Positions 32,544 through 64,000 of a DNA stretch of 64,000 nucleotides are shown one piece after another. The DNA comes from Narcine bancroftii (Eukaryota). A program made the position numbers and the translations under genes. Positions within the stretch are counted from its first letter, which is position 1. Each line of letters begins with the position of its first letter. The stretch is taken from positions 209,560,001 to 209,624,000 of the forward strand of contig NC_091470.1 of assembly GCF_036971445.1 (NCBI RefSeq), written 5' to 3'. Below the pieces are notes generated by a model, which saw nothing but the letters and a program-made list of their open reading frames with translations, had not been told where the DNA came from and did not search any database.

Positions 32544-33474
32544 AATTGTCATATCACCATTAACTTTACAAATGTCTTTAATTTGATGTTTGGCTGCTAA
32601 GGGTTTTAATTGATTAGCCAAAAGTTTACCCATTATATCTCCATGGATATAAAATTGACTTTTGATTATAAATGTGGGTATTAATTGGATACACGAAAAA
32701 AAGGTTGTATTTGGCATTAATTTCAATGCGTCATATATATAGAGCAGGATTTGGATCCAGATCTAATAGCTTCAGTTGGTTGGTGAGTTTTTCTCTTGAT
32801 TCGCCTTTCCTAATGTTTGCAGTATAGAAATGGTTTGTATCCTAATAAAAGCCTTAAAAGTGTCCCATACAATAAGACGAGAAGTCTCTTCCACAGTATT
32901 TTTTTCAAAAAAGAGTAATTTATTCCTCCAAAAACTGGAAAAATACCGTATCAGATAGCAAAGTTGAAATGAAATGCCAAATGACTGTTTATTTGAGAAA
33001 TACCAGGAAAATTTAAAGATAGTAACATAGGACCATGATCAGAAAAAAACTAATTATTTGCATTCATAAGAACAAGTTAATGGGATAATTTGACTGTCAA
33101 TAAAAAAGGTCAATCTGTAAATATGTACTATGAACAGAAGGAAAAAAACTAATATTCCCTGTCTATTGTATGAAAATAATTCCCAACATAAATAATACCA
33201 CATTCTAATAAAAAAAAGATTGAATGAACAAAGCCGGATGAACAAAGCTGGTTTAGAAGAATAATCTAGTCCGGGTCAAACCAGCAATTAAAGTCCCCCC
33301 ATCACTAATGAACAAAGACTTAAATCAGATAAGATTTAAAAAAAACATTCAAAAAGTCCAGGGTCATCCCTGGTGTGGATCTGCAGGTGGGTCTTTAGGA
33401 TAGAGGAATGATTGAATCCCTTATGACACTCGGGGCAGGTGAAGGGCAGCTAGCAGTGTGAACCTACTGGTGGG

Positions 33475-34896
33475 TCAGCATGTCCCATTATAGATTGAAC
33501 CCCTTATCGAACTCGGGGCAGGCGAAGGACCTCGCCCTGATATGGATCCGCCGGTTGGTCTTAAAGCTAGAGGAGTGGGTGAAGCCCTTACCACACTCAG
33601 GGAAGGTGAAGGGGCACACCCGGTGTGGATCTGCCGGTGGTTCTTCAGTCTAGATGAGTGGATGAAGCCCTTGCCGCACTCGAGGCAAGTGAAGGGCCAC
33701 TCACCAGTGTGAACAAGCCGGTGGGCCAGAAAGACTGACGATCGACTGAACCCCTTGCCACACTCAGAGCAGGTGTAGGGCCTCTCCCCAGTGTGGATCC
33801 GCTGGTGGGTCTTCAGGTTAGAGGATTGGGTGAAGCCCTTGCCACACTCAGGGCAGGTGAAGGGCCTCTCCCTGGTGTGCACGCACTGGTGAGACTTCAG
33901 GTTAGAGGACTGGGTGAAGCCCTTGCCACACTCGGGGCAGGTGAAAGGCCACTCCCTGGTATGGATCCGCCGGTGGGTCAGCATGTCCCCCGAATGACTG
34001 AATCCCTTGCCGCACTCAGAACACTTGAAGGGCCTCTCCCTGGAGTGGGTCCGCTGGTGGATAATCAGGTTTGAGGACTGGGCGAACCCCTTGCCACACT
34101 CCGGGCAGGTGAAGGGCCTCTCCCTTGTATGGATCCGCTGGTGGACCTTCAGGTTTGAGCGTTGATTGAACCCCTTGCCACACTCATGGCAAGTGAAGGG
34201 CCTCTCCCTGGAGTGGATCCGCCGGTGGGTCTTTAGGTCAGAGGACTGGGTGAAGCCCTTGCCGCACTCAGGGCAGGTGAAGTGCTTCTCTCCAGTGTGG
34301 ATCCGCTTGTGGTACTTCAGGTGAATGAACTGGGTGAAGCCCTTGCCGCACTCAGGGCAGGTGAAGGGCCACTCACCGGTGTGGACCCACTGGTGTGTCT
34401 TCAGGCTGGAGAACTGGGTGAACCTCTTGTCGCACTCAGGGCAAGAGAAAGGCCTCTCTCCGGTATGGATCCGCTGGTGGGTCTTCAGGCTGGAGGATTG
34501 GGTGAACCCCTTGCCGCATTCAGCGCAGGAGAAGGGCTTTTCCTTGGTGTGGATTCGCTGGTGGGACTTCAAGTTAGAGGACTGGATGAAGCCCTTGCCG
34601 CATTCAGAGCAGGTGAAGGGCCTCTCCCCGGTGTGGATTCGTTGGTGGGACTTCAGTTTAGAGGACAGGGTGAAGCCCTTGCCGCATTCAGGGCAAGTGA
34701 AGCGCCACTCACCAGTGTGAACCTGCTGGTGGTTCAGCAAGTCCCATGATCGACTGAACCCCTTGCCACACTCAGGGCAGGTGAAGGGTTTCTTGTTCAT
34801 GTGGAGACGCTGGTGGGTTAGTAGGTGGGAGGACTTGGTGAAGCCCTTCCCACATTCCGAGCAGGTGAATGGCCTCTCCCCGTTGTGGGCACTCAT
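33475..34896 (-). CDS. Tandem C2H2 zinc-finger protein A, 15 intact fingers followed by a frameshifted tail
   Basis: CxxCGKGFxxxxxLxxHxxxH repeats with TGERPF linkers; first ATG at 34896; acceptor ttttgcttcag at about 35048; out-of-frame degenerate fingers continue to about 33360. Confidence 0.9.
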   Translation of the reverse strand: MSAHNGERPFTCSECGKGFTKSSHLLTHQRLHMNKKPFTCPECGKGFSRSWDLLNHQQVHTGEWRFTCPECGKGFTLSSKLKSHQRIHTGERPFTCSECGKGFIQSSNLKSHQRIHTKEKPFSCAECGKGFTQSSSLKTHQRIHTGERPFSCPECDKRFTQFSSLKTHQWVHTGEWPFTCPECGKGFTQFIHLKYHKRIHTGEKHFTCPECGKGFTQSSDLKTHRRIHSRERPFTCHECGKGFNQRSNLKVHQRIHTRERPFTCPECGKGFAQSSNLIIHQRTHSRERPFKCSECGKGFSHSGDMLTHRRIHTREWPFTCPECGKGFTQSSNLKSHQCVHTRERPFTCPECGKGFTQSSNLKTHQRIHTGERPYTCSECGKGFSRSSVFLAHRLVHTGEWPFTCLECGKGFIHSSRLKNHRQIHTGCAPSPSLSVVRASPTPLALRPTGGSISGRGPSPAPSSIRGSIYNGTC

Positions 34897-36149
34897 TTTG
34901 GAAGGCAGAAATGTCCCTTGCACACACAGCAGGTGAGTGACCAGGCTTCGGTTAGGATGTGCTCACAATGCCCCAAATCATCTGTGGAAAGAACACTGTG
35001 TTTGCTCCAGATTCACCCAACTGCTTCTAGGTGATATCCAGCTAATCCTGAAGCAAAAATTTCAGTCTGGACGGAAAACTATTTTTCAAGCCTCAACAGC
35101 GATTGATAATTTTTAACAAAGAAATATTTGTTCACTCCTTCAGCGATGTGGTAAATAAATTATTTGGCTTCACCCCTGTTTAGTTCATCAAAGCTTCTCA
35201 GAGGATGTGCTTCACTTTCCCTCAGTGACTCTCTCTGCACAACTGGCCAAAATTCCTTACAGTCAGTGGTCCTTAGCACTCTTATTCAGGGTTATGAATC
35301 CCACTGTCTTGCTAGTCACACTGTGGCTTGTAGTCTCTTCTCAGAAATAAAACATGCAAGTATTGCCTCTTCGCTGACGTGACTGGTGCTAATGTTGTCT
35401 TGGATTCCCATCCACAACTCCTCAGCTTTTATCACCCTGCAAAACAAGTGTACCCACATCATTATTCAGAGAAAGGCGGCAAGGTAGAACAGGTCATTGT
35501 CATCAGCTATTGGCTGTATTCCCACCTCAGTCAGAAAGTTGAGACTTCATAGACGATAATTGAGCCAAGAAGTTCAATGAATCACAAAAGTAATGAGAAT
35601 TTTGCTAAGGGTCCCAACCTGAAATGTTGTCCTTGGATGTGACCTGACCTGACCTGACCCTGCAGCTTCCCATTGTTCACTCAAAATTCCAGCATCTGCA
35701 GTTTTTGTGTTCTTCTACAGTGGGGTTTTTTTTACTGAGAATTAAATTTAGTTCATTGTCTGTTTTTAATCTCAGTCCCAAATGAAACTGTTTCCTCAAC
35801 CATGTGGATGTCGGCAAGGTCTGGAAAGCCAATCAGCTCCAAATCCATCCACATGCATTTCTCAATTCACTCGGCTGACTGACAGGGAGAGTGCTACTGG
35901 CAAGTGGAACCAGTGGAGTTAAATGAGGAAGTCTGCAGTCACTGAGGTTGAATGTTACACACAAACCTGCTGGAGAAACTCAGCCGGTCATGCAGCATCC
36001 ATGGGAAATAAAGGAGAATTAATTTGTTGAAGGGCTCAGGGCCAAAACGATGGAAATAATCTTTTCCTCCTATGGACACGAGAAGAACGGCTGAGTTCCT
36101 CCAACATTTCTGTGTCTTTTTTTTTTCCACCATTTCCAGACTGGGCACT

Positions 36150-37815
36150 TGTTCAAATTGGAGGAACAACACCTTGTATTCTGTCTGGGCCTTCTCCAAT
36201 CAGACAGCATTCCCACTCCTATCAGGGAATTAGTCTTTCCCCATCACCTCAGTTGTTTTTCTCTTTTACCCTCCCTCGTGCGTCCACTTGTGTCCTCATC
36301 TGCCATTTCTGCCACCTACTACATGATCCCACCACTAGACACAACTATATTTCCCTCTCCTCCCCTCACCGCCTTCTGCAGGGACCTCTCCCCTCTGTGA
36401 CTCCCTTCACCATTCCTCCCTCCCCACCAATCAACCCCTTGGTATCTACCCCGTGATAGGAGATGCTCCTTCTCCCTCACCAACATTCGGGCCCCACACT
36501 GTCCATCCAAGTGAAGCAGCATTTCACTTGAGAATCTGCAGGGATCATCTACAGCAGGGGTGTCAAACTTAAATTCACAGAGGGCCAAAATTAAAAACTT
36601 GGACTAAGTCGTGGGCCAAACTAAATATTTATTGAAAATTTTCAACATCTGCATGTTTTCTCTTCTTTCAACATATGTAATGTTAAACTTTTTCTTATTA
36701 AAATAAATGTTCAATAATAGTTTTGGTTAAACTCTTTCCAGAAGAAGCATTAACAAATGAGAAATAAAATATTCAATAAATAATATTTCTCTATAGCCTT
36801 TAAGCTCCTTTTAAATGTATTTTTTTTCACAAGCCAACAAGTCAAAAAAAATAACAACTTGCTTCAATGAAAATCCAATCTTTCAACTATGAACAGTCCA
36901 AAGTTAACCAAAGAAAATATTAATCCAAGCTTTGCTTGCTACACTGTGATTTACTCTGATGCACCTGGGTCTAAACCAGATACTTGGCATCTCTTCTTAG
37001 ATGCAAGTTCATCAAACTCTGGGGTCACTGTTTGCCTCCCACCTGTCTTGAAAGGTCCTGTTTTCTGTCTTTCGTTTGGCCATTTTTTGTAAGGGGTTTA
37101 TTACATGTGAGTTAGGTGACAGGTCGCAGATGCTAATGAAAGTAAAGAGGGGAGGTCGGGGTGATTAGCGGGCTGACAGGCCGGCGACAACGCATTTGCA
37201 AAGCATTCTGGGATTTGTAGCATTAGCTGTGCATGCGCTATACTGGCGCAGCAGCCAGCGGGCAAGCTCTAATACATATAACCATAACCATATAATCATC
37301 TACGGAGTGGAAACAGGCCATGTTGGCCTTTCAAGTCCGCACCGGTTCACAGATTTTGTGCGCCCTCTTCAGGCATTGGTCCCAGTAGATCTTCATTCAA
37401 TAACGATGGGCGAATTCAATGCAGCTGGAATCTTATTGAAATTGAAAGCAAGATTGTTGTCCTGGCACCACACAACCAGATTCTTGATCTCCATCCTGCT
37501 TTCTGACTCATGCATTAGCTCTGTCTGTGCCTGAGTTTGACATGTGTGATCTACAGCATCTGCTGCTCCTGCTGTGGTCTTTTCTACATCGGAGAGACGG
37601 GACGCAGCCTTGAAGATCACTTTGTTGAGCACTTCGGCTCTCGTCTGGCACAATAGCATGAATCTCCCAGTAGCCACCCATTTCAATACCCAGTCCCATT
37701 CCCTTGTTGGCATGCCTATCAATGAACTCATGCACTGCCAAACTGAGACCACCTGCACATTGGAGGAACAACACCTCATAATTCCGTCTGGACATTCTCC
37801 AACCAGATGGTATTA
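36150..37815 (+). mobile_element. Penelope-like element fragments split by a hAT insertion
   Basis: After removing 36555-37548 the sequence reads IYSICCSCCGLFYIGETGRSLEDHFVEH...HCQTETTCTLEEQHLI (GIY-YIG). Confidence 0.75.
36555..37548. mobile_element. Non-autonomous hAT element with 8-bp TSD ATCTACAG, carrying an internal LINE fragment
   Basis: Left end caggggtgtcaaact, right end agtttgacatgtgtg; exact TSD at 36547-36554 and 37549-37556. Confidence 0.85.
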
Positions 37816-39269: not shown

Positions 39270-42068
39270 CGTAAAATGGTCAATGACCGCAGTGACTGTG
39301 TTGCCCTGGGGGTGTCACCGGCCGTCGTCACATGGCGGGAAGACGGAGAACTCTGGCGGGAACCTTGGCCAATTCTGGGGCAGCACTCCGACGATGCAGG
39401 GCCCTGACGTCAGGGCCAGTGGCCCACATGGGCGCGACGGGGGACCATCTATGCTTCCGACGGGATGGGTGTCGCAGCCGCACATGTGGCTTGAGCAGAC
39501 CGAGGCTCAATTCCAGCTTCACAACATCACCGCCGACCACATCCACGACGTTGTGAGCCCACTCAACCAAGACGCAGTGCAAGGGCCGTAGAATTCCTAC
39601 TGCAGCCTTTGGAGCAAGGCAAATACGCGGCCCTCAAGGAGCTGTTAACCCGATCTTTCGGGGTCTCCTGGCATAAGCCCGCTGCCCAATTGCGGCATTT
39701 GTGTCAGATTTGGGGACAGGGCCCCAAACACCATAATGAGCGAGATGCTCACTCTGAGGGCCTTGCCTGGTCTTCGAGCAGATCTTCTGGAGCAGTTGCC
39801 TGAGGATATCTGACTCTTGCTCACAGACGAGGACTTCAGCGACCCTGGGGGGGGGGGGAGGGGTCGCAGCCCAGATGGACATGCCCCAGAGAGCGAAGAA
39901 GGATGCCAGCTCCATTGTAGACCATACCAGCAAGCCCCATGAACAGCCCCCGGTGAGATCAAGGCCAATGGAGAGGCAAGTGGACTTCCTGGGGCAGCTA
40001 TGCTACTACCATCAGTGATGGGATGTGGAGGCCCTTTGATGCAGTCCACCCTGCAGGTTTTCAGGAAATACACTGGCCAACTGTTGTTGATGACTGCAGT
40101 GGTTGGCCCATGTGATAGCCTCCTCCACGTCTGGGACTCGTTGGGCAGGCGTTTCCTGTACAGTAGTAGAACACCTCATTTTCTTCTAGGGACAGACCTG
40201 CCTTCACATCCGACAACCACTGAGTAGAAGTGGGAGGGACAGCGTCTTCCTATCTCAGTAAAATGGCCCTTCTGACAACAAGGGAAGCAAAAGCCACGAC
40301 ATGGAATTGTGAAGAAGTTCATGTTCAATCCATGGCCCACTCACTCCAAAGATAGCAAAAACAATGGCTGAGAGTCATGTTAATATTAAGAACTAATGAT
40401 AAGGTGAGAAATATCCCTTGCCAGAAATGAAAGAGAGACATAACGAAAACATATGATAGAAAGTGACTTCCTCAATTAGGCATTTATCACATTTAGAAGA
40501 GATTAGGATGAAATGTAGCTCACTGCACCTTGGAAAAGTGAGCCCGATGGACCATGTTAAATTGCATTAATGAATGTCTGGCACAAAGAGGAGATGAGGG
40601 AGCCCGTTTCAAAATGGAATCCCATGCAATTTCGGCAAATGGTTGTTGAAAATCTTGTTCCCTTATTTTCTTAACACCACCCAGGAAACCATCTCAATAT
40701 CTTAAAATAATTCATAAAGGGCTGAAAACAATCCTTTATGATCAGATTTTAAATGATATACTTCCCAAATAAGGTCAGGTCTATGGTCCACCTGCTGTCG
40801 CACAAGTTCATATGGCACGGACTCTGTTGAGACATTACCCTATTGGCCCGAACCTGCTTACAGTGCCAGAGCGCCAAGGTGCACACTACAGACCTTCAAG
40901 CCAACACAACGCAGGTTCGAACATGTCCACATTGACATCGCCGGGCCCCTCCCAATGAGTTAAAGTATGAGGTACATGTTCGTGACTTCGTGCAAGATGG
41001 ACACGTGTGTCCGGGCTTTCCCAGCCACCTTGGTTGCATGTTTTGGAATCCTGACCCATATCACATCGGATCAGGGAGTGCAGTTCACCTCCTCCTTCTG
41101 GTCCAATGCGAAATTCTATGGCAGTTAAGTCCATCACACCACAACCTAACATCTCCAAGCAAATGGACGAGTCGAACGGTTCCACCACCACCTGAAGGCT
41201 GCCTTGAAAGCCTGACTGACCGGACTGAATTGAATTAATGAGCTTCTGTAGGTACTGCTCGGAATCAGCATGGCACCGAAAGAGGACCTGCCAGCATCGT
41301 CCGAGGTATGATACACCTCTCACCATTCCAGGGGACCTACATTTCAACCCCACAGCCCAGCACTTTAAACATCTTAAGCAGGTTGAGATCGCAAGAGGGT
41401 GAACAACTCCTTTCGGTACTGTCCCGACACGGATCACCACCCAACCACTTTCCATTAGACCTGCAGTCTACCCATTACATCTTCGTATGCAGAGGACAAC
41501 AAGGAACACCCCTACTGTGCCCGTACAAAGGCCCTTTCAAGGTTCTGGGGAGAGACGATTTTGTATTTACATTGGACATTGGCGGCTGACAGGACAGATT
41601 CACAGTCAACCGCCTCAAAGCCACACAGCTGGATTCTGAACTGCAAGCCCCCAGATCCCCGGGTCAGAAGCAGAGGTAGACTGCCCAGAGACTGTTCAGA
41701 CCGCTCAAAAAGCGGCGACAATTCTCGGGGGGTGGGGGGGATTGGTGTAGCAGGCCAAGCGACCATGTGGGTTAACTGGCCAAGTCACCACAACAAATGG
41801 CCATTCCAAAATGGTCCCCAAATGAGGAGCCTATGTTTAGCACCACGTGCAAACTAAGGAGCCTTCCACTTCCGTGAAGCAGGCTGCCAGCTGAGGAGTG
41901 ACACTGATGTGATTACATCACTTTCGGAAGCCAGTGGTTACATCACCGGAGGAGGGTATTTCCAGCGGGGCAATGCAGCAAATTCAAACAATAAAGTCAG
42001 TCTTTGTTGCACCCTCGTACTGTGTGGACGTCTCGTTATTCAATAGCGCTGCTAAAGTAGTTGCTACA
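39270..42068 (+). mobile_element. Degraded Gypsy LTR retrotransposon (gag, integrase, PPT, 3' LTR 41746-42068)
   Basis: Gag-like WLEQTEAQFQLHNIT; integrase RFEHVHIDIAGP and PYKGPFKVL; G-rich PPT, then LTR TGTAGCA...TGCTACA with AATAAA. Confidence 0.85.
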
Positions 42069-43678
42069 TATGCACCAAATTTAGATGATGAAAAATCTAT
42101 GCAAGATACTTTTTGACATTTGGCAGATGCACATGAGGTGACTTTAATTTTTGTTTAGATCCTTTATTAGACAGATCTTCAAGAACATTAGTTAAATCTA
42201 AAGCAGCTAAAACGATGTTACATTTAATGAAGGATTTAAACTTAGTGGATAAATGGAGGAAAATTTATGCTTGGGATAGAGATTATTCTTTTTATTCTAA
42301 TAGATTTAATTCATATTCTAGAATTGATTTATTTTTACTTTCAGTTCAAAATCTTGACAATTAAAAGCAGAACAAATCTCGAACAATCAATGCAATGTAA
42401 CGAGATAATAAGAAGGTGTAGCGGCTATTAAGGTAGAGCTACTAAAGAAATACAAACACACGCCAGAGTAGTCAACTGAAGACTGATTTATTCAGAGTTT
42501 ACAGGCTTTTATATACTGTGTGTCCCAGGCTCCATGGGACAAGGTGGGACGTCACTACGAGATTGCTGCTGATCCACGGGACCGGCAGGTTTAAATTTAG
42601 CCTCGTAAGTGTCCCACACCTTCTGGCAGGAGACTCAACAGTTCAAATGCCATTTCTTGGCACTCAGTATCTCTCATGTGTGGTCCATTAGGTGAGTAGG
42701 GAGACGTTCGCATTAGGGTTCCGCACGCCCGCAGAACCATGCCGGTGACAGTTCTCATTGCTGCGCTGTGCACCCACTCGGCCCGCTATAAGGACGCTAC
42801 ATCATATGCAGCACCCTTATTATGCTTTTGCACGTCCACAGAACCATGCCAGTGACAGTTCATGTTGCCGTGCTGTGCCTGCTCGGCCCGCTACAAAGGT
42901 GACATTTAAACCTCAAGAAACAAATGAAACTTTTAGGGAATTTTATGAAAATTATATACTTCAAAATCATTACAAGACAAAACCAATATAGATAATTATT
43001 TGCCACAAATAATACTGCCAAGATAAACTGAGTTAGATAAAGATAATTTGGATGGACCATTTACTGAACAAGAAGTTAAGGAAGCGCTTGTTGACAGAAT
43101 AATATCCTGGAGAGGATAGATTCCCTGTGGAATTTTATAAAGAATGTAAAGATCTAATTATTTATTTATTTATGCAAGTAATAGAACAAGCTTCTATGTA
43201 CATGCCCTTCAACAGCGATTATTATGGTTATTCATAAAAAATACAGAGATCCATTAAAACCCATTTCATATAGTCCTATTTCATTGTTAAATGTTGATTA
43301 TAAAAATATTGTGAAAATATTAGCAAATAGAATAAATAATTGGTAGATAAATTTATAGATAAATAAATTAATAAATATTAATAAATAACTGGTTTTGTTA
43401 AAAATAGACAAACTTCTGAAATCTAGTAGGATTATTAAGTATAATTCATCTGGCATTAAAAAGAGGGGATTTAAGTGTAGCAGTTGGATTGGATGCAGGA
43501 AAAACTTTTGCTAGATTAGAATGGGATTTTTCATTTAAAGTTTTAGATAAATTTGATTTTTGGATTTAATTTTGTAAATTGGATTAAATCACTTTATAGA
43601 ATTTTTAAAGCTAAAGTAATAACTAATGGGCAGATATCTCAATCATTTAACTTGACTAGATCAAGTAGGCAATGCTGA
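42069..43678 (+). mobile_element. Degraded L1 ORF2 fragments (endonuclease and RT)
   Basis: YAPN, GDFN..LDPLLDRS, YSRIDLFL, PISLLNVDYK, LDAGKTFARLEW, KVITNGQISQSF. Confidence 0.85.
42417..42895 (-). mobile_element. Solo LTR with 4-bp TSD AAGG
   Basis: Termini TGTAGCGG...CCGCTACA; aagg on both sides; minus-strand TATA and AATAAA; internal about 65-bp duplication. Confidence 0.85.
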
Positions 43679-48493: not shown

Positions 48494-49700
48494 TCACCAC
48501 ATTGGGTGGGGAGGGTACAAGTCATGGAAAATGGGGAACTGGGTAGCAGGGACATACTCTGACAAGATGGACATGATGGCATAATGGATGGCCTGGTGCC
48601 CATGGCCCTGCTGATCAGCACAATCTGCGCTATTGGGTGCAGGACCATCTGCTTCAACCAATGTCCACTCTGAAGGAAAGTCTTCCTTGTTAATCTCACA
48701 TATATTGTGCAGTACATGGCAGGCAAACACAACATCTGGAACTAAGGCGGTAGAGATATCTAGATGCTTGGACAGGCATCGCCAGTGGCCTTTTAGATGG
48801 CCAAATGCATGTTCCACCACTATCCTTGTTGAATTAAGGGCCTTGTTAAATCTTCGCTGATCCTGATTCAGTACTCGGTGCTGTGTGAACCCCTTAATCA
48901 GCCAGCATCGTAGGGGGTATGCCGCATCACCCACAAGATGCGCTGGAACCTCCACTTCCTCAACATTCTTGGACACCTGCAGGCACAACGATGCAGACAT
49001 GTAGTTAATTCATGCACCTGAACCTTGGACACAGCAAGCATGCATAACATTTGAAACACGGAGCTTTGAAGGGTGAACACTCACATCTCCTGGAGACGTG
49101 TTCCACTTGGCAGGGAGATGAAACGTTTACCAAGGAACTTAATCATGGTGGTAGTCTCCTCCTGCACCACCATGCACACGGTGCTGATGCCTATTCCAAA
49201 GATGGTACTGATGGATCGATACCCACAAGGGGTGGCATACCACCACAAGGCCACAGCTAATCGGTCTGGGCTCAAATGGTCACTGCAAGTCCAGTCTATG
49301 TGCCTTCAGGTGAGGTTCTATGAGTTCCAGCATGAAGTGAAAGGTGCCACGCGGCATACAAAAGTGTCTGCTCCACTCAGCATCATCAAATTTGGTGAGG
49401 ACATTACTCCAGAAGTCAGCACCCTACATTTGGTTAACCTCCAGAGAGACCAATGTGTCACCATAGCTAATTGACTGACCAGCAGCATTCACCTTCGTCT
49501 CCGACGTTTATGCTCCACGCGCCTTTCAACCGCTAACTGCTGTCTTCTTGCCCTCAAGCTTTGCAGGAATCTTCTCCTGATTGCACCCATGCAACTTTCA
49601 GATCTCAAGGACAAATGAAGAGCTTCAACAGCACAAATAGCCTTACCAAGGATCTGCCTTATCTAATTCTGAACATTCAGAAATGCTGAAATCATCATCA
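48494..49700 (-). pseudogene. Harbinger (HARBI1-like) DDE transposase, disrupted and internally deleted
   Basis: RLAVALWWYATPCGYRSISTIFGIGISTV; LVGDAAYPLRCWLIK; RIVVEHAFGHLKGHWRCL; ACHVLHNICE; the DG-containing first catalytic segment is not visible. Confidence 0.9.
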
Positions 49701-51497: not shown

Positions 51498-53126
51498 GAT
51501 AAAATTTCAAACAGTATAAACTTGGACTCCCCTCCAATGCACTGGAGGAACACAGAAATGAAATATATATATAGTCTTGGCAGAGAGGTGAGTACTAGAG
51601 AAGTTGTTTAAAAGAGCATGGAGGGGAAAGAGTTAAGCAGAGTATTGATCTGTGAGGGAGTAATTGAGATTATTGGCAGGGACAAATAAAAGGGGGAGGT
51701 AGCTAAAGAGGAGTGGAGCTTTGAGGGTTGGGCTTGAGAAGCCCTGGATGGTTCTCTTTCCCCCCCCCCCCCCCCCACCCTTCTTTCACAATGTTTGAAA
51801 GTGCACCCATTACACCCTCAAATAGTACCTGGTGGCTGAACAACCTCAAGCGCTAGTGTGGCTATTTCCATTCACCAACTCCTCTTGATCTCAGTCCGAA
51901 GTGGCCACCCTGAGACCAGGCTCCCTGGTTCTTGACTTGGTCCTTCCCTGAGGAGGTCAGACCCACACATGGAAACCCACCACCTGGCACTTTTACAATG
52001 AGCCTTGGATGCATTTGCCTCTGAACACTGAATACATCCAGTTTGCCCCATGAAGCTTCCTGTTGACTCTGTGTGCACTGCCCTTCCAGAGGGTGAGTCC
52101 AAGCTCACACCGAAAGAAGGGCTCTAACTTTGATATTTTGTAAATGACATTAAAATTTTAAAATTGCAGAATGCAGCGGATAATTGGGAAGGATGATGGT
52201 GGGTGATAGAAGTAGCACAGTCTTAAATGAACTGTATCACTTGTGAGACCACACCTTGAGTAATGAGAATAATACTGCTCCGTGAGAACTATGGACACCA
52301 CAGCATAGAAAAAAGGCCCTTCAGCCCATCTGGACCCTGACAAACTATTCTGATTGTCCTACTGACCCACACAGGCCATAACCCTTCATATCCCACCCAT
52401 CCCTCTACCCACCAAAATTTCCCTTCAACATTTAATTAACCATATCACCCTTAACCCATATCCCCTCATTTTTGTCTCACCTGACCTCTACTTGCAGTTG
52501 CCCCAATGATATTCCCCTCATCATCAAGTTCACTGGTTGCAGGCAATTCTTATACTGTTCACAGAATTTAACTTTATAAAGTTCAGACTCATGGTGAACC
52601 CAGCTAAGTGCCAGTTCAGCCTAGAGTCAATCGATTTCCTAAGACACTACTGCTGGATAAAGTAGAAGCCATCCAGCGATTCCTCCAGCCAAGCACAATC
52701 AAAGACCTACAGGATGCTGGGGATGCTGAACTTTTATCATTGTTTCCTCCTGGGAGTGGCCACTCTCATATAACCTCTATTCGACCTCGTCAAACTCGGC
52801 GACAAAGTTCACATGTCCAGTGGACATCGGCCAGAGTGGTCGGCGCGGTGCTGGAACAGTGGGTCAATGAACAGTGGCAACCCCTGGCTTTCTTCAGCAA
52901 ACATCTCCGGACACCAGAACTCAAATACAGCACATTCAACCATGATCTCTTGGTCCTGTACCTGGCAATACGATATGTTTGCTACGTTAGATTTCCGCCA
53001 CCTACCCAGATCACAAACCACTCACCCACACACTCAGCATGGTCTCAGACCCATGGTTGATGAGGCAACAGCGGCACCTCTCCTACATTTTAGAGAACAG
53101 AATGGACATTCATCAATGTGGTGGCC

Positions 53127-55560
53127 GGGGGAGTCACGTGATGGAGTAGTGGCCGGACGGTGAACTCCAGCCCTCTCCAGAAAAGTCGGGAAAAACAAGA
53201 GAAAACACAAAGGCACAGAAATAAAAGTTACAGAAAAGTGAGTATAAAGGTGGAAAGAAGATGGCGACAAAAAAAGAAAAGTCGAAAGCAACGGTAAGAA
53301 GAGAGGAAGAGAAGACAAAGGAGGAAAAAGGTGAAGGCCTTACCTGTCCGAAGAGGCCCGCTGCGGAGAGAGAAACCCGCTCCCTCAGGTCGGTAAATAA
53401 TGGACTACAAAAATGGCTCGCAGAGCCGAGCAAAAGTGCGCAACCGCGCATGCGCGAAGTTTCGCGCATGCGCGATGCGAATGAAAAAAAACACACCGAC
53501 GGGAGGGGGGACCAGCTGGGGAGTCGATCTCCACAGCCGGCAACGACAGCTGCAGAACACCTGCAGCAAGAAGAGACCACAGAAGACAATAGAAACAAGA
53601 AAGAAGAGGAGGAAAGGGCACCAAAGAAACAACAGATGGCCAACCCAGAGGAAGAAGAAGAGGAAGAGTATGGTGAAATAGAAGAAGAAAAGATAGGCAA
53701 GGTAAAGGATATACTTGCTCTTATTAAAGGATACATGGAGTCATTTAAAGAATGGCAAACACAGGAATTTAAGGATTTAAGAAAAAGAATAAACAACACA
53801 GAAGAGAAAATAATTAAAATGGAGATGACCTTAACAGAAATGGGAAAAAAAATGGACAAGATGGAAGAGCGGGCAGTAGCAGCAGAAATGGAGGTAGAAG
53901 ACTTAAAAAAGAAATTGGAGAAATCTAATAAAAAAACTAAAGAGACACAAGAACTACTAGCTCAAAAAATAGATACAATGGAAAACCATAACAGAAGAAA
54001 TAACATAAAGATAGTGGGCCTTAAGGAAGATGAAGAAGGCAAGAATATGAGGGAGTTTATAAAAGAGTGGATCCCTAAGACCCTAGGATGTCCAGAACTA
54101 CAGCATGAAATGGAAATAGAAAGGGCACATAGAGTATTGGCCTCTAAACCACAACCACAACAAAAACCAAGATCTATTGTAGTAAAATTCCTAAGATATA
54201 CTACAAGAGAAAAGGTACTGGAGAAGACAATGGAAAAAGTAAGAGAGGGCAACAAACCACTGGAGTATAAAGGGCAAAAAATCTTCATTTATCCAGATAT
54301 AAGTTTTGAACTCCTAAAGAAGAGAAAAGAGTTCAATACAGCAAAGGCGATTTTATGGAAGAAAGGGTATAAATTTATACTAAAGCATCCAGCGGTATTG
54401 AAAATATTTATTCCAGGACAACAAAACAGACTATTCTCGGATCCAGAAGAAGCACGAAAATTTGCAGAACAATTACAAAAATAGACTGAGGGAGGAAGAC
54501 GGGTAATGAGAGTTAAAATGATCACGACTGATATGTATGTGGGTAAAGACAAAAATAGACTGAGGGATGAAGACGGGGAATGAGAGTAAAAATGATCACG
54601 ATTGATATGTATGCAGGTAAAGAGGTATAAGAGTGAATAGAGACAATGAGCATACATGAATGTATCTGTACTTAGAGGAAAATATAGATAGTATAGACAA
54701 GAATTAATAAGGGAAGGTAATGGAATAGAGAGAATAAGGAGGGAATTAAAAGAGGGACCTTTGTGACATATGAAAAGTGAAATCTTTTCTGGGGGAGGCG
54801 GGGTGGGGGGAAATAGCGGTCACTGCAAAATCAGTTGACGCTTGCGAGTGGATTCGCAAATCCAAATGGAGAGGGGAGATGTGGTTGTCCGACAAGGGAT
54901 AAAGGACAACTCAGGAGGTGAAGGGGAGATTGGGGATAAATAAGATAGAAATAGGAGAATAAGGAAAATGTTAGATGTTGTAGGAATGTTGTCTTATAAA
55001 GAGTTGAAAATAAGAAAACAGAAATGGAAAAGGAGGAAAGGTAATGATGGAAAAACGGAAAGAGAAGATAAACAAAATATAAAAGGGCTACGCTGAACTA
55101 TATGTCTTTAAATATTAATGAAATACATAACCAAATTAAAAGGAAGAAACTACCAAATTTAAATGAATAAATGTATTCCATTAGAAAAAATAACATATTG
55201 GTTAAGAAATAATATTGAAATATTCGAACAAGTATAGGAGCCTTACATTAAATACAATAGCGAAAACCTACCGGGGACAAACATTACCTAAGTTGATGGA
55301 AGGAGAAGGAAAGAAAAGAATGGACTCAGTAGAATTTCTGGTGTAATTTTGTTGAATGACAACATTGTCTGACTGGCTTAATGCAACCTAGATTGTATAC
55401 CTAAAATGGATGAGAGGGGGGGGGGGGGTGGGGGGGTGGTTTGGGAGGAAAGGGGGGGGAGAAAAAGTCACTGTATATGTGTGAAAAAGAAATAGTGTAT
55501 ATCATGGCTAATGTGATTTATGGTGTGAAAAATAAAAAAATTAAAAAAAAAAAAAAAAAA
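53127..55560 (+). mobile_element. Non-autonomous ORF1-only L1 derivative (HAL1-like), 2434 bp
   Basis: 5' GGGGGAGTCACGTG, intact ORF1, G-rich 3' tract, AATAAA and poly(A); exact TSD aatgtggtggcc at 53115-53126 and 55561-55572. Confidence 0.88.
53261..54484 (+). CDS. L1 ORF1p (coiled coil, RRM, CTD), 407 aa, intact
   Basis: MENHNRRNNIKIVGLKE, IERAHR, PRSIVVKF, IFIYPDIS, HPAVLKI motifs. Confidence 0.93.
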   Translation: MATKKEKSKATVRREEEKTKEEKGEGLTCPKRPAAERETRSLRSVNNGLQKWLAEPSKSAQPRMREVSRMRDANEKKHTDGRGDQLGSRSPQPATTAAEHLQQEETTEDNRNKKEEEERAPKKQQMANPEEEEEEEYGEIEEEKIGKVKDILALIKGYMESFKEWQTQEFKDLRKRINNTEEKIIKMEMTLTEMGKKMDKMEERAVAAEMEVEDLKKKLEKSNKKTKETQELLAQKIDTMENHNRRNNIKIVGLKEDEEGKNMREFIKEWIPKTLGCPELQHEMEIERAHRVLASKPQPQQKPRSIVVKFLRYTTREKVLEKTMEKVREGNKPLEYKGQKIFIYPDISFELLKKRKEFNTAKAILWKKGYKFILKHPAVLKIFIPGQQNRLFSDPEEARKFAEQLQK

Positions 55561-57130
55561 AATGTGGTGGCCAATGCGCTATCCAGAGCGACCATCGCCG
55601 CTAACTCAGGAGGATTTGATGTCGTGCAGCTGGCCAAGGACCAAAGGGAGTTTGTGGACATCCAAGCCTACCAGATGGCCTGAAGGTTAGCCATTTCTGT
55701 CCCTCACTGGGAAGCCCGAACTTACTGTGCAACATGTCCACAGGTTTCCCCAGACCCATCCAACCCGTGACCTGGTGACGGCAGGTGTTTGACCAAATTC
55801 ATGCCCTGTCCCATCCCTCCATAAGGTCCATGGTCCACCTGTTGTCTGAAAAGTTCATGTGACATGGCCTCCGGCATGATGTGATCCTGTGTGCTAAGAC
55901 TTGTTTGGATTGCCAACGTGCTAAAGTGCACAGACACATCAAGGCCCCACTCCAGAGTTTCGAGCCAGTGCAGTGCCACTTTGACCATGGGCATGTGGAC
56001 ATCTTAGGTCCGGTCCCTATGAGCCAAGGTATGCGGTATCTGTTCACTGTAATCGACTGCTTTACCCATTGGCCGGAAGCCATACTCCTACCCACATGTG
56101 ACACAGAGACTTGTGGGTCAGGACTACAAAGCACAAGGTGGCTCTGGCACATCACCTTGGACAGAGGGGCCCAGTTCACGTCCTTGCTCTGGGCTAACCT
56201 AACCAACTCCTGGGGCAGCCAGTTGCACCACATCTCAGTCTGCCATCCTCAGGTAAGTGGCCTGATCAAGCATTTCAACCACTACCTGAAGGCAGCCCTA
56301 AAAACTCAGCCTTAAGGCCTGAATGGATGGACGAACTCCCATGGGTGCTGTTAGCCATTCGCACAGCGACGAAAGAAGACCTACCAGCTTCCCACTTACC
56401 ATCCCGGGGACATTGACTACAACCCTCCTGGTCACAGCCAGACATCCTCCAGCAATTGATGGTGCAAGTGGGTAAGCAGAAATCTCCGCCACCTTCCCCA
56501 CATGGCTCTCCACCCTGCCATGTCCTGGCGGACCTGCAGTCAACCGACTTGATCTCTGTTCGAAGAGGATAGCAGTGCCCCTACAAAGGCCCATTCAAGG
56601 TGTTGTAGCAGGATGGTGTCATTTTGACCCTGGACATTGGTGGGCGGCAGGACAGGTTTACAATTGATTGGCTCAAGGCAGTGCGTTTGAACTCAGGCCA
56701 GCCCACCACAGATCCCCAGGTCAGACACAGAGGTTGCCTTCCTAAAGACAGTATGATAACTTGTGGCAGTGATTCTTGCAGGGGGGAGGGTGGTGTAGTG
56801 GGTGGTGGAGCGACCACTCAAAGGGCCGAATTGCCACCCCAGTCATCCAACACAAGATGGAGCTGATTCCCCCCTTCCCTTCTGAGAAGCCTGCGGTTGG
56901 CAACACCCATTGCCCGGGTACATCGCCACTCCCTGGTCGTGTGCCATTAGATAGGTGGTGATGCCGCGACATGCTGACTTCACTCCTGAAAGCCAGTGCG
57001 CCCCTCAAAGGAAGTGGGTGGTCCCCTCATGCAGTGCGAGGAATTCAAAATAAAGTTTCAGTTACTGGTCCATCCTCGTGCTGTGTGGACGTCTCTCATT
57101 TTGGTGGTGCAGCTGGTAGCAGATGCTACA

Positions 57131-60845: not shown

Positions 60846-61773
60846 CTTTGGGATGATCCCTAGTGGTATAGTAATGACACCTCCCCCTCACTTGTTTTCG
60901 CTCACTAGCTGAAGTGGTTTCCAGTATGTGGCACGAGGGGCCAACAAGTAGGAGATGAGTGAGGTCCAGTGATGCCTACCATCCCCACCTTAGTGAGGGG
61001 GGTATAAGGAAGGAGGGTGGGAGGGGTAGGGCAAGGGTGAAGTAAACTAGCATGTAATCATTGTAATTTTAAATTTAATCGGTGTGTGTCTGCTTGCAGT
61101 TTATTACATGTATGGAAAGATTTTAAATAAAATATTCCAAAAAGAGTTAAATTCCATTTGTCAGTTTGACCCATCTTCCCAACTAACCTGCATCCTGCTG
61201 TAAACTGAGATATCCTCTTCTCTTCAGTGACAGCTTTTAACTCTACAATCTTTTATCTTCACCTTAATTAGACGCAATGATCTGGCCTCCACTATCCGAT
61301 GGAGCAGGAAATTCCAGCGATTTCAATTTTTAAAATACATTTCCGTTAATTTTCGAGATACAGCACAGTAATTGGCCCTTTTGGCCCACGAGCCCATGCT
61401 ACCCAAATATACCTAATTAACCTATAATCCATTGGAGAGTTATTGGAGAATGGTGGGAAACCAGAGCCCCCAGAGGAAACCCAAACATGTCACAGGGAGA
61501 ACAACTTCTTTCAAACAGCAGTGGATTCAAACCCACGCCACCATATTTAATTTAAAAAAAATGTAAACACATTTAAATGCTGAACATACACAGATTTAAA
61601 CATTGTCCCCGGTGTGACCCTGCTGGGGGGCCATCAAGTTGAATGACCAAGTGAATCCTTTCCCACACACTGCACAGGTGAAGGGTCTCTCGCCAGTGTG
61701 ACTCCACCAATACATCTTCAGTGTGAACCTGATGGTGGGTCAGCAAGTCTGACGGTCAACTGAACCCCTTGCC

Positions 61774-62502
61774 TCACTCATTGGAGGTGAAGGACCTCTT
61801 GCCGGTGTGAATCTGCCGGTGGGACTTCAGGCCAGAGGAGCGAGCGAAGCCCTTGCCACACTCGAGGCAGGTGAAGGGCCTCTCACCAGTGTGGATCCGC
61901 CGGTGAATCTTCAGGCTGGAGGAGCGGGTGAAGCCTTTGCCACAAGCGAGGCAGGTGAAGGGCCTCTCACCGGTGTGGATCCGCCGATGGGACTTCAGGT
62001 GAGAGGAGTGGGTGAAGCACTTGCCACACACGGGGCAGGTGAAGGGTTTCTCCCTGGTATGGATCCGCTGGTGGGATGTCAGGTTAGACGAGTGGGTGAA
62101 GCCCTTGCCGCATACGGAGCAGGTAAAGGGCCTCTCACCGGTGTGAACTCTCCGGTGGATAATAAAGTTTGATGATTGACTGAACCCCTTGCCGCACTCA
62201 GGGCAAGTAAAAGGCTTTTCCCCAGTGTGGATCCGCCGGTGGGACTTAAGGTGAGAAGACTGGGTAAAGCCCTTGCCACACTCAGGACAGGTGAAGGCCC
62301 ACTCACCAGTGTGAACCTGCCAGTGGGTCAGCAAGTCTGGTGATCGACTGAACCCCTTTCCACACTCAAGGCAGGTGAAAGGCTTCTCGCCAATGTGGAC
62401 CCTCTGGTGGGTTAGGAGGTGAGAGGACTTAGCAAACCCCTTTCCACACTCCGAGCAGGTGAATGGTTGTTCCCCGGTGTGGGCCTGCTCGTGGGCACTC
62501 AT
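61774..62502 (-). CDS. Tandem C2H2 zinc-finger protein B, 8 intact fingers; paralog of A
   Basis: Eight CxxC...HxxxH units; first ATG at 62502; acceptor at about 62654; degenerate fingers after the stop to about 61600. Confidence 0.88.
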
Positions 62503-62529
62503 TTTGGAAGGCAGAATGGACCCCTTCAC

Positions 62530-64000
62530 TCACAGCAGATGAGTGACCAGGTTTTGGTTAGGATGTGCTCTCGATGCCCCAAATCATCGGGGAAAAGAAC
62601 ACGGTGTTTGCTTCAGATTCACCCATCTACTTCCAGGTAAAGTCCAGTTAATCCTGAAGCACAAATTTCAGTCTGGGACAGAAAATTGTTTAACAAGTAT
62701 CAACAGTGATTGATCACTTTTAACAGCAATGTGGAAAATAAATTATTTAGCTTCACTCCTGTTTAATTCATCAAAGCCTCTCAGATGTGTTTCCCTCAGT
62801 GACTTTCTCTGTGCAACTGGCCAAAATTCCTTGCAGAGTCAGTGGTCCTTTACACTCTTATTCGGGGATGTGAATCTCACTGCCTTGCCGGTCACACTGT
62901 GGCTTGCAATCTCTTCTCAGAAATAAAACACGCAAGCATCGCCTCTTCGCTGACGTGACTGGTGCTAATGTTGCCTTTGATTCCCATCCACAAATCCTCT
63001 GCTTTTATCACCCTGTAAAACAAGTGTACCCACGTCATTATTTAGAGAAAGGCCGCAAGGTAGAACAGGTCACTTTGGCCTCTGTGGTCAGATGTCGGCT
63101 GTATTCCCACCTCAGTCAGGAAGTTGGGGCATTCTAAGCGTTAATTGAGCCAAGAAGATCATTGAATCATAAAGGTAATGAGAGTTTTGTAAAGGGTCCC
63201 AACCTGAAACGTTGGCCTTGGATGCGACCTGACCCACTAACTCCCTGCAGCTTCCCATTGTTCACTCAAAATTCCAGCATTTGCAGTTTTTGTGTTCTTC
63301 TGTAGAGGGTTTCATTTACTGGGAATTAAATTTAGTTCATTGACCATTTTAAACTCAGTCCCATTTGAAGCTGTCTCCTCAACCATGTGGATGTCAGCAA
63401 AATCTGGAAAACCACTCAGCTCCAAATCCATCCACATGCATTTCTCAATTCACTCAGCTGACTGACAGGGAGAGTTCGACTGGCGAGTGAAACCAATAGA
63501 GTTAAACGAGGAAGTATGCAGACACTGAGGTTGAGTGCTACACACAAACCTGCTGGAGAAACTCAGCTGGTCACGCAGCATCCATGGGAAATAAAGGGGA
63601 ACTTATTCCTTGAAGTGCTCAGGTCTCAAACGATGGTAATAATCTTTACCTCCTCTGGTCATTGCAAGATCGGTCGAGTTCCTCTAGCATTTCTGTGTGT
63701 TTTTATTACCAACATTTCCGGCCTAGGCCCTTGCTCAGATATAAGCAAAAACAGACAGGCATCAGAATAAAAAGGTGTGGGTGGGGGAAGGTGCCCGTAA
63801 ATTGGAGCAACACCACCTTGTATTCTATCTGGGCCCTCTCCAATCAGACAGCATTCCCACTCCTATCAGAGAGTTACTCTTTCTCCCATCACTTCACGGG
63901 TTTTCTCTTCCACCCTCTCACCTGTGTCCACTTTTGTCCTCCTCCACCATTTCCGTCACCTACTACGTGACCCCACCACAAGACACAAACTGTATTCCTT
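62530..64000. repeat. Segmental duplication: paralogous to 34920-36350
   Basis: Collinear non-coding similarity (e.g. gcctcttcgctgacgtgactggtgctaatgttg; cagctccaaatccatccacatgcatttctcaattcactc), including the shared Penelope fragment. Confidence 0.9.

Follow-up and report, generated by a model that had tools for sequence, protein, structure and literature searches.

The window analysed here, a stretch of 64,000 nucleotides from the electric ray Narcine bancroftii, harbours on its plus strand at 53127-55560 an L1 (LINE-1) retroelement that retains its first open reading frame (ORF1) and lacks nearly all of the second (ORF2). An initial annotation, made from the letters alone, had described an L1 with a 5' end, an open ORF1, a poly(A) tail and an exact target-site duplication (TSD) of 12 bp inside a decayed Gypsy element, and had proposed a family resembling the HAL1 ('half-L1') elements of mammals. 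This anatomy is confirmed in the sequence, whereas the limits require correction: the annotated span of 53115-55572 includes both copies of the TSD, and the two ORF2 remnants meet at 55161 rather than near 55160. The element and its host comprise the following parts.

53115-53126 (+): target-site duplication, left copy (12 bp), an exact repeat of 55561-55572
53127-53260 (+): 5' untranslated region (UTR), 134 nt, with a G run at its start and a putative internal promoter; contig depth already reaches the level of the whole family in its first complete bin
53261-54484 (+): ORF1, 407 aa, with charged N-terminus, coiled coil, RRM and C-terminal domain (CTD), assigned from the open frame, a Protein Data Bank (PDB) match and relatives
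54475-54622 (+): 74-nt tandem duplication that covers the stop of ORF1 and the first part of the spacer, 92% identity
54485-55083 (+): inter-ORF spacer, 599 nt
55084-55161 (+): opening 26 codons of ORF2, where the endonuclease begins, with AGG replacing ATG, assigned by fit to full-length fish ORF2s
55161-55161 (+): deletion junction with one shared A, placed by contig loose ends on both sides and by the gap-free record 4 of sequencing run X1
55163-55291 (+): final 42 codons of ORF2, in a frame different from that of the N-terminal remnant, TAG at 55235-55237; aligns to proteins with endonuclease (EN) as well as reverse transcriptase (RT)
55292-55542 (+): 3' UTR, about 250 nt, with a G-rich tract and AATAAA at 55531
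55543-55560 (+): poly(A) tail of 18 nt, extended by two A from the TSD to an A-run at 55543-55562
55561-55572 (+): target-site duplication, right copy, an exact repeat of the left copy
52500-56315 (+): host, a decayed Gypsy-type pol with RT/RNase H on the left and integrase on the right, assigned from an rve match and per-flank frames; span approximate

The insert bracketed by the TSD measures 2434 bp. The 12-mer AATGTGGTGGCC forms an exact direct repeat at 53115-53126 and 55561-55572 and has only these two occurrences in the window when both strands are searched, and the probability that a 12-mer abuts both element ends by chance is about 8e-6. Native ends, poly(A) tail and TSD are all present in the short element, and the depth of contigs from public sequencing runs begins at 53127. 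No second copy was found in the window by blastn or tblastn. A frameshifted Gypsy pol serves as host; separate reading of its flanks reveals an integrase core (rve, E 1e-6) at 56019-56312 on the right and, on the left, motifs that we take to be those of RT and RNase H. Just left of the TSD, at 53095-53114, the Gypsy frame appears about six codons short of the usual RNase H end; an older deletion would account for this gap, as would sequence lost at the target site.

Between ORF1 and the poly(A) tail just two short ends of ORF2 persist, which bears out the annotated loss of EN and RT. An intact ORF2 with both domains is absent, so that the copy does not classify as an autonomous L1, and about 1195 of about 1263 codons (3.6 kb), sized on the full-length proteins P0029 and P0030, are gone. 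The N-terminal remnant, previously put at about 26 codons, comprises exactly 26 (55084-55161) and starts with AGG; its best ungapped fit lies at residue 2-3 of two full-length fish ORF2s, a fit equalled by 2 and 3 of 300 shuffles, respectively, and BLASTP with these 26 codons alone gave no significant match. The 42-codon remnant from 55163, in which TAG is codon 25, aligns to residues 1223-1260 of EN- and RT-containing proteins of 1263-1264 aa (E 1e-9, pairwise). A word-based protein search with this C-terminal remnant returned no protein and two candidates, and no intact partner ORF2 was recovered; an exhaustive search gave three matches, one being the ORF2 C-terminal fragment P0026, while the other two, repeat-rich proteins, were set aside as chance. 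Since the lengths of the parts agree with those of fish L1s, for which an excerpt of PMC5381506 gives a 5' UTR of 113-267 nt, a spacer of 311-730 nt and an ORF2 of 3.5-3.8 kb, the element is best described as a fish-type L1 minus the interior of its ORF2. Beyond this anatomy, we consider it probable that this L1 copy, short of some 3.6 kb of ORF2, belongs to a mobilised ORF1-only family of the HAL1 type, which borrows the ORF2 protein (ORF2p) of full-length L1s and whose ORF1 is under selection.

Such a family presupposes partners as well as further copies with the same deletion, and both were sought in public contigs from four of the 15 listed runs (X1, X5, X7 and X11), aligned to 52850-55850 at 85% likeness; X1 may be the source sample of the window and, for this locus, offers no independent evidence. 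Among the loose ends listed (24 of 1477 rows, translated by hand), at least 30 contigs of X1 and at least 10 of X7 run past 55161 into endonuclease-like sequence, while at least 38 of X1, 26 of X5 and 2 of X11 reach 55161 from sequence that reads in the frame of the C-terminal remnant. An autonomous-type partner, as postulated from the outset, hence exists: full-length-type L1 contigs in the same DNA diverge from the window exactly at 55161. Further X1 contigs leave at 55147 (at least 17) and 55198 (at least 15), which points to additional, more distant L1 subfamilies. The loose-end counts were rejected as a gauge of the deleted share, given that partial contigs align less often.

Uniqueness of the junction, which would have refuted the initial proposal, does not hold, as attested by a single other copy. 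This copy, X1 record 4 (347 nt, depth 5.9), spans it without a gap over 55085-55211, with 77 letters to the left and 50 to the right, and is also collinear with 54865-55006; it differs at 18 of 127 positions, corresponding to about 14% divergence. Because a full-length-type contig would mismatch at 20 of 30 positions after the junction and at 19 of 30 before it (hand counts), record 4 is taken as a different copy with the same deletion. The junction pattern had no match in the JGI metagenomes. An alternative in which splicing or a fixed template jump produces the short form repeatedly out of full-length RNA, with insertion in cis by the proteins of the parent, or in which the junction is an assembly error, appears highly improbable. 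The partner sequence directly before the right arm does end in AG, and none of the contigs among the pieces listed is identical to the window across the junction; against this, the skipped stretch would start with AC or CT and end with AG or GA (hand reading), a single base is shared, and a differently mutated contig spanning the same junction argues against an error of assembly. Splicing as such was rejected, the skipped stretch lacking GT-AG ends on either strand.

In addition to the shared junction, the contigs attest to a great abundance of the family. Depth over the element amounts to 3e5-1e6 compared with 7-9 for locus-specific contigs; in X1, the mean over the 5' UTR and ORF1 is 4.7e5, compared with 7-9 for two contigs identical to the locus borders. 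The ratio of right-arm to 5'-half depth is 2.2 in X1, 5.2 in X5, 0.56 in X7 and 0.80 in X11. By comparison, more than 99% of old human L1 copies are 5'-truncated or inverted, while among human-specific copies about one in three is full-length, according to the accessible part of PMC4859970. The flat depth profile favours many short elements, without proving them.

Moreover, lesions of the window copy recur in the family. Among the 25 variant rows listed in the element, the window letter is near-private at 8 (at most about 10% of X1 depth) and accounts for 15-85% of X1 depth in the remaining 17. At 55085, ATG is present in 54% of X1 depth, so that up to 46% are devoid of it; at 55236, TGG makes up 72-76% of depth in X1, X5 and X7, leaving 24-28% otherwise, and non-majority letters at 55121, 54755 and 54106 reach just 0.4-1.3%. 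Provided that the remainder at both sites is indeed the window letter, large subfamilies are marked by the lost start and the early stop, as would be expected were ORF2 dispensable. Many independent insertions of the short form, the flanks of which lie beyond the reach of short contigs, are suggested by the high depth together with its flat profile and by the recurring lesions.

The same data bear on the view that a rare deletion in an ordinary autonomous L1 was spread by segmental duplication or gene conversion and not by retrotransposition. In stickleback, LINEs decay mainly through large deletions, which are common there, as stated in an excerpt of PMC3381678, most of the read evidence also fits full-length partners plus truncations with one other junction copy, and the window sits in a duplicated zinc-finger cluster. 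On the other hand, record 4 lies 14% away from a copy that has an open ORF1, a pure A tail and an exact TSD, which is a poor fit to duplication of this locus, an autonomous family would have difficulty in sustaining start loss and early stop at 24-46% of depth, and a steep 3' excess of depth is missing. This explanation is therefore regarded as unlikely.

Two further patterns in the runs were left out of account. The share without ATG at 55085 is 82% of depth in X5 compared with 46% in X1; this enrichment was not counted as expression, the RNA nature of X5 being a guess. Parts of the element also occur under four other organism labels (runs X7, X10, X11, X12 and X13), with X11 contigs 97-100% identical. 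None of the element words occurs in two runs that share the sample of X7, and X11 has a depth of about 1e2 and no cover of the flanks. X7 and X11 were hence not counted as other species, carry-over DNA being likely, though their signal may also stem from a related species or horizontal transfer.

ORF1 (53261-54484) matches solved chains of the LINE-1 ORF1 protein (ORF1p) over residues 195-402 in a PDB search (E 5e-13), a match from which its domain borders were placed by eye; Pfam yielded no match to it at E<=0.01. Among 24 homologues the three closest stem from N. bancroftii itself (91, 88 and 69% identity), in accordance with the cartilaginous-fish host foreseen in the annotation, and are followed by one protein and a stingray protein at 46-49% and then by teleost L1 ORF1s. 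Across these relatives RRM and CTD are better conserved than N-terminus and coil, which may reflect the autonomous past of the lineage. NCBI names for the relatives are confined to LINE-1 ORF1 protein or misnamed genes; the gene models FAM122B, GrpE-like and tRNA adenosine deaminase 1 (P0002, P0003 and P0005) contain L1 ORF1 sequence and are apparently misnamed or chimeric. A search of GTDB genomes with ORF1 gave no match, and other ORF1 searches gave four distant loci at 24-35% identity, of which L002 is a different, non-ray element.

The frame had been called clean. It is free of stops, but carries at least three near-private amino-acid changes and ends about eight codons before that of the relative P0001, whose tail lies in another frame here. 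Since no indel row is among those listed at 54475-54622, the earlier end may be family-wide; one X5 contig skips one unit of the 74-nt duplication at this site. A perfect GC-rich inverted repeat of 14 bp lies at 53445-53474 in the coding region of the N-terminus, and several contigs skip 31-35 nt there, for which reason it is considered a variable spot in the family.

How much an open ORF1 means depends on age. In a simulation of substitutions only, an unselected ORF1 remains stop-free in 55-61% of cases at 1% divergence, in 31-37% at 2% and in 2-4% at 7%. The contrast previously drawn between broken ORF2 remnants and a clean ORF1 is hence present but weak for a single copy, and an open ORF1 in a young copy, which this one plausibly is, is unremarkable. 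The deletion, in turn, looks older than the copy: if the lineage has been deleted since the 14% split from record 4, that is 7% on each side, the probability of a stop-free frame in the absence of selection would be 0.02-0.04. The open frame thus constitutes evidence on two conditions only: that the deleted lineage has the age suggested by record 4, and that its partners have not refreshed it. Under the view that ORF1 is a passenger, the family would be mobilised like a long SINE by both partner proteins, its ORF1 being open on account of recent origin or refreshment by template switching. The chance values at 1 and 2% divergence are compatible with this, and both arms are at least 85% alike between partner and deleted form, which makes recombination possible; conversely, the 14%-diverged copy with the same junction indicates a long-lived lineage, and guinea-pig HAL1 kept its ORF1 coding for about 29-44 Myr, as relayed in an excerpt of PMC3627910 citing Bao and Jurka 2010. 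We rate a passenger ORF1 as rather unlikely, and an ORF1-only family that arose in the ray lineage as the best reading.

Such a family could be maintained as follows. One internal deletion would have removed the interior of ORF2 while leaving 5' end, ORF1, spacer, 3' end and poly(A) in place. RNA from the promoter in the 5' UTR would yield the element's own ORF1p, which, by analogy with L1 biology, would coat this RNA in cis. Subsequently, ORF2p of a partner would bind the poly(A) or 3' end in trans, nick the target and reverse-transcribe the RNA by target-primed reverse transcription, giving rise to the 12-bp duplication. With a length of 2.4 kb as opposed to about 6 kb, more of the new copies would retain the promoter and become new sources; for rat HAL1, the accessible part of PMC8535693 states that a short RNA is more often copied whole with its promoter kept. 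As ORF2 would be useless, start loss and early stop could become more frequent by drift from one source lineage to the next, with ORF1 probably kept under selection.

Several points weigh against this interpretation. The junction is covered by just one of the 30 records listed (29,585 further pieces). Summed contig depth is no copy number, and the rough floor of about 1,900 copies (the largest overlap inflation, 31, being divided out) and the ceiling of 59,000 comprise deleted and full-length forms together. A low 3':5' ratio would also be expected from a young autonomous family with one-third of its copies full-length, the share in the available part of PMC4859970. That the remainder at 55085 and 55236 is the window letter is an assumption, as is the linkage of AGG, junction and TAG on one molecule, and X11 displays ATG and TGG only. 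AGG need not inactivate a full-length copy, because an in-frame ATG follows six codons later. Since the loose-end counts of 30 and 38 are similar in order of magnitude to the 53-99 contigs in nearby variant rows, full-length types may represent most of the diversity. Finally, the three near-private changes listed in ORF1 are all non-synonymous, as expected of mutations after insertion. The more far-reaching proposal of a long-lived and still transcribed parasite with thousands of copies, accounting for a large share, and perhaps the majority, of the L1 copies with a promoter in the electric ray genome, is put forward as a tentative possibility that we doubt at present.

With regard to known relatives, the mammalian HAL1 elements are non-autonomous L1 derivatives that encode only ORF1p and arose several times (excerpts of PMC5753468 and PMC2241872). 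The ray element shares with them its derivation from an L1 by deletion of ORF2, the coding capacity for ORF1p only, the lack of autonomy and an origin of the repeated, independent kind. Rat RNHAL1 numbers about 7500 copies, the 5' 2600 bases of which are 98% identical to an active L1, according to the section of PMC2241872 available, and so resembles the ray element in having a close partner. In contrast to HAL1, the ray element resides in a cartilaginous fish, descends from a fish-type L1 with short 5' UTR and long spacer, and retains both ends of ORF2 as short remnants. Because its parent L1 sits in the same genome, its origin was independent of mammalian HAL1, as had been supposed. HeT-A of the Jockey clade and Ag-Sponge of the CR1 clade likewise keep 5' and 3' parts of a LINE together with ORF1 in the absence of RT (PMC5786205, in excerpt), yet belong to other clades and hosts, and HeT-A is specific to telomeres, whereas the ray element lies in a Gypsy element within a zinc-finger cluster. 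Compared with autonomous fish-type L1s, of which P0029 and P0030 are teleost examples, 5' UTR, ORF1, spacer and both ORF2 ends are the same, while ORF1 is longer (1224 nt as opposed to 780-1059 nt in the part of PMC5381506 at hand) and the ray element, devoid of about 1195 of about 1263 ORF2 codons, cannot move alone. L1-clade origin, sole coding for ORF1p, native ends and a junction at more than one locus, the structural hallmarks of the HAL1 type, are all found. Rays have probably evolved a HAL1-type family independently, of a kind already described in HAL1, HeT-A and Ag-Sponge. No ORF1-only L1 of cartilaginous fish appeared in listings of the open literature, a search that extended neither to subscription papers nor to Repbase and Dfam, which may list the family. 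PMC5203782 and PMC13756887 contributed no information about fish, and PMC8535693 mentions shark in its references alone.

The remainder of the window contains further repeats. Decayed ORF2 pieces of other L1 subfamilies lie at 42024-43672 (+), 40181-40660 (-) and 32571-33043 (-), none of which resembles the element by blastn; in the first of them the EN and RT stretches are closer together than in an intact ORF2. Arrays of C2H2 zinc fingers occupy 33367-36171 and 61719-63753, and since the two are 81% alike over 2 kb, the window is considered part of a duplicated zinc-finger gene cluster. A fragment of a Harbinger/PIF-type transposase (DDE_Tnp_4, E 8e-17) is present at 48494-49000 (-), and a perfect tandem array of 33-nt units (19.7 copies, 100% identity) at 1038-1688.

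Rays and mammals belong to lineages that split over 400 Myr ago. If the interpretation as an ORF1-only family is true, the half-L1 way of life re-arose from a fish-type L1 of different layout, and, if the large-parasite proposal also holds, this would be the first such family in cartilaginous fish, found beside a near-identical helper. For genome annotation, the relatives of its ORF1 matter in that they already enter misnamed ray gene models. Human L1 proteins favour their own RNA, and a family that combines ORF1p in cis with ORF2p in trans bears on how this preference is bypassed. Helper and parasite are directly comparable here, given that the parental L1 is still present and that the break can be placed at a single base; such a pair would test why half-L1s keep their ORF1 and whether they throttle L1.

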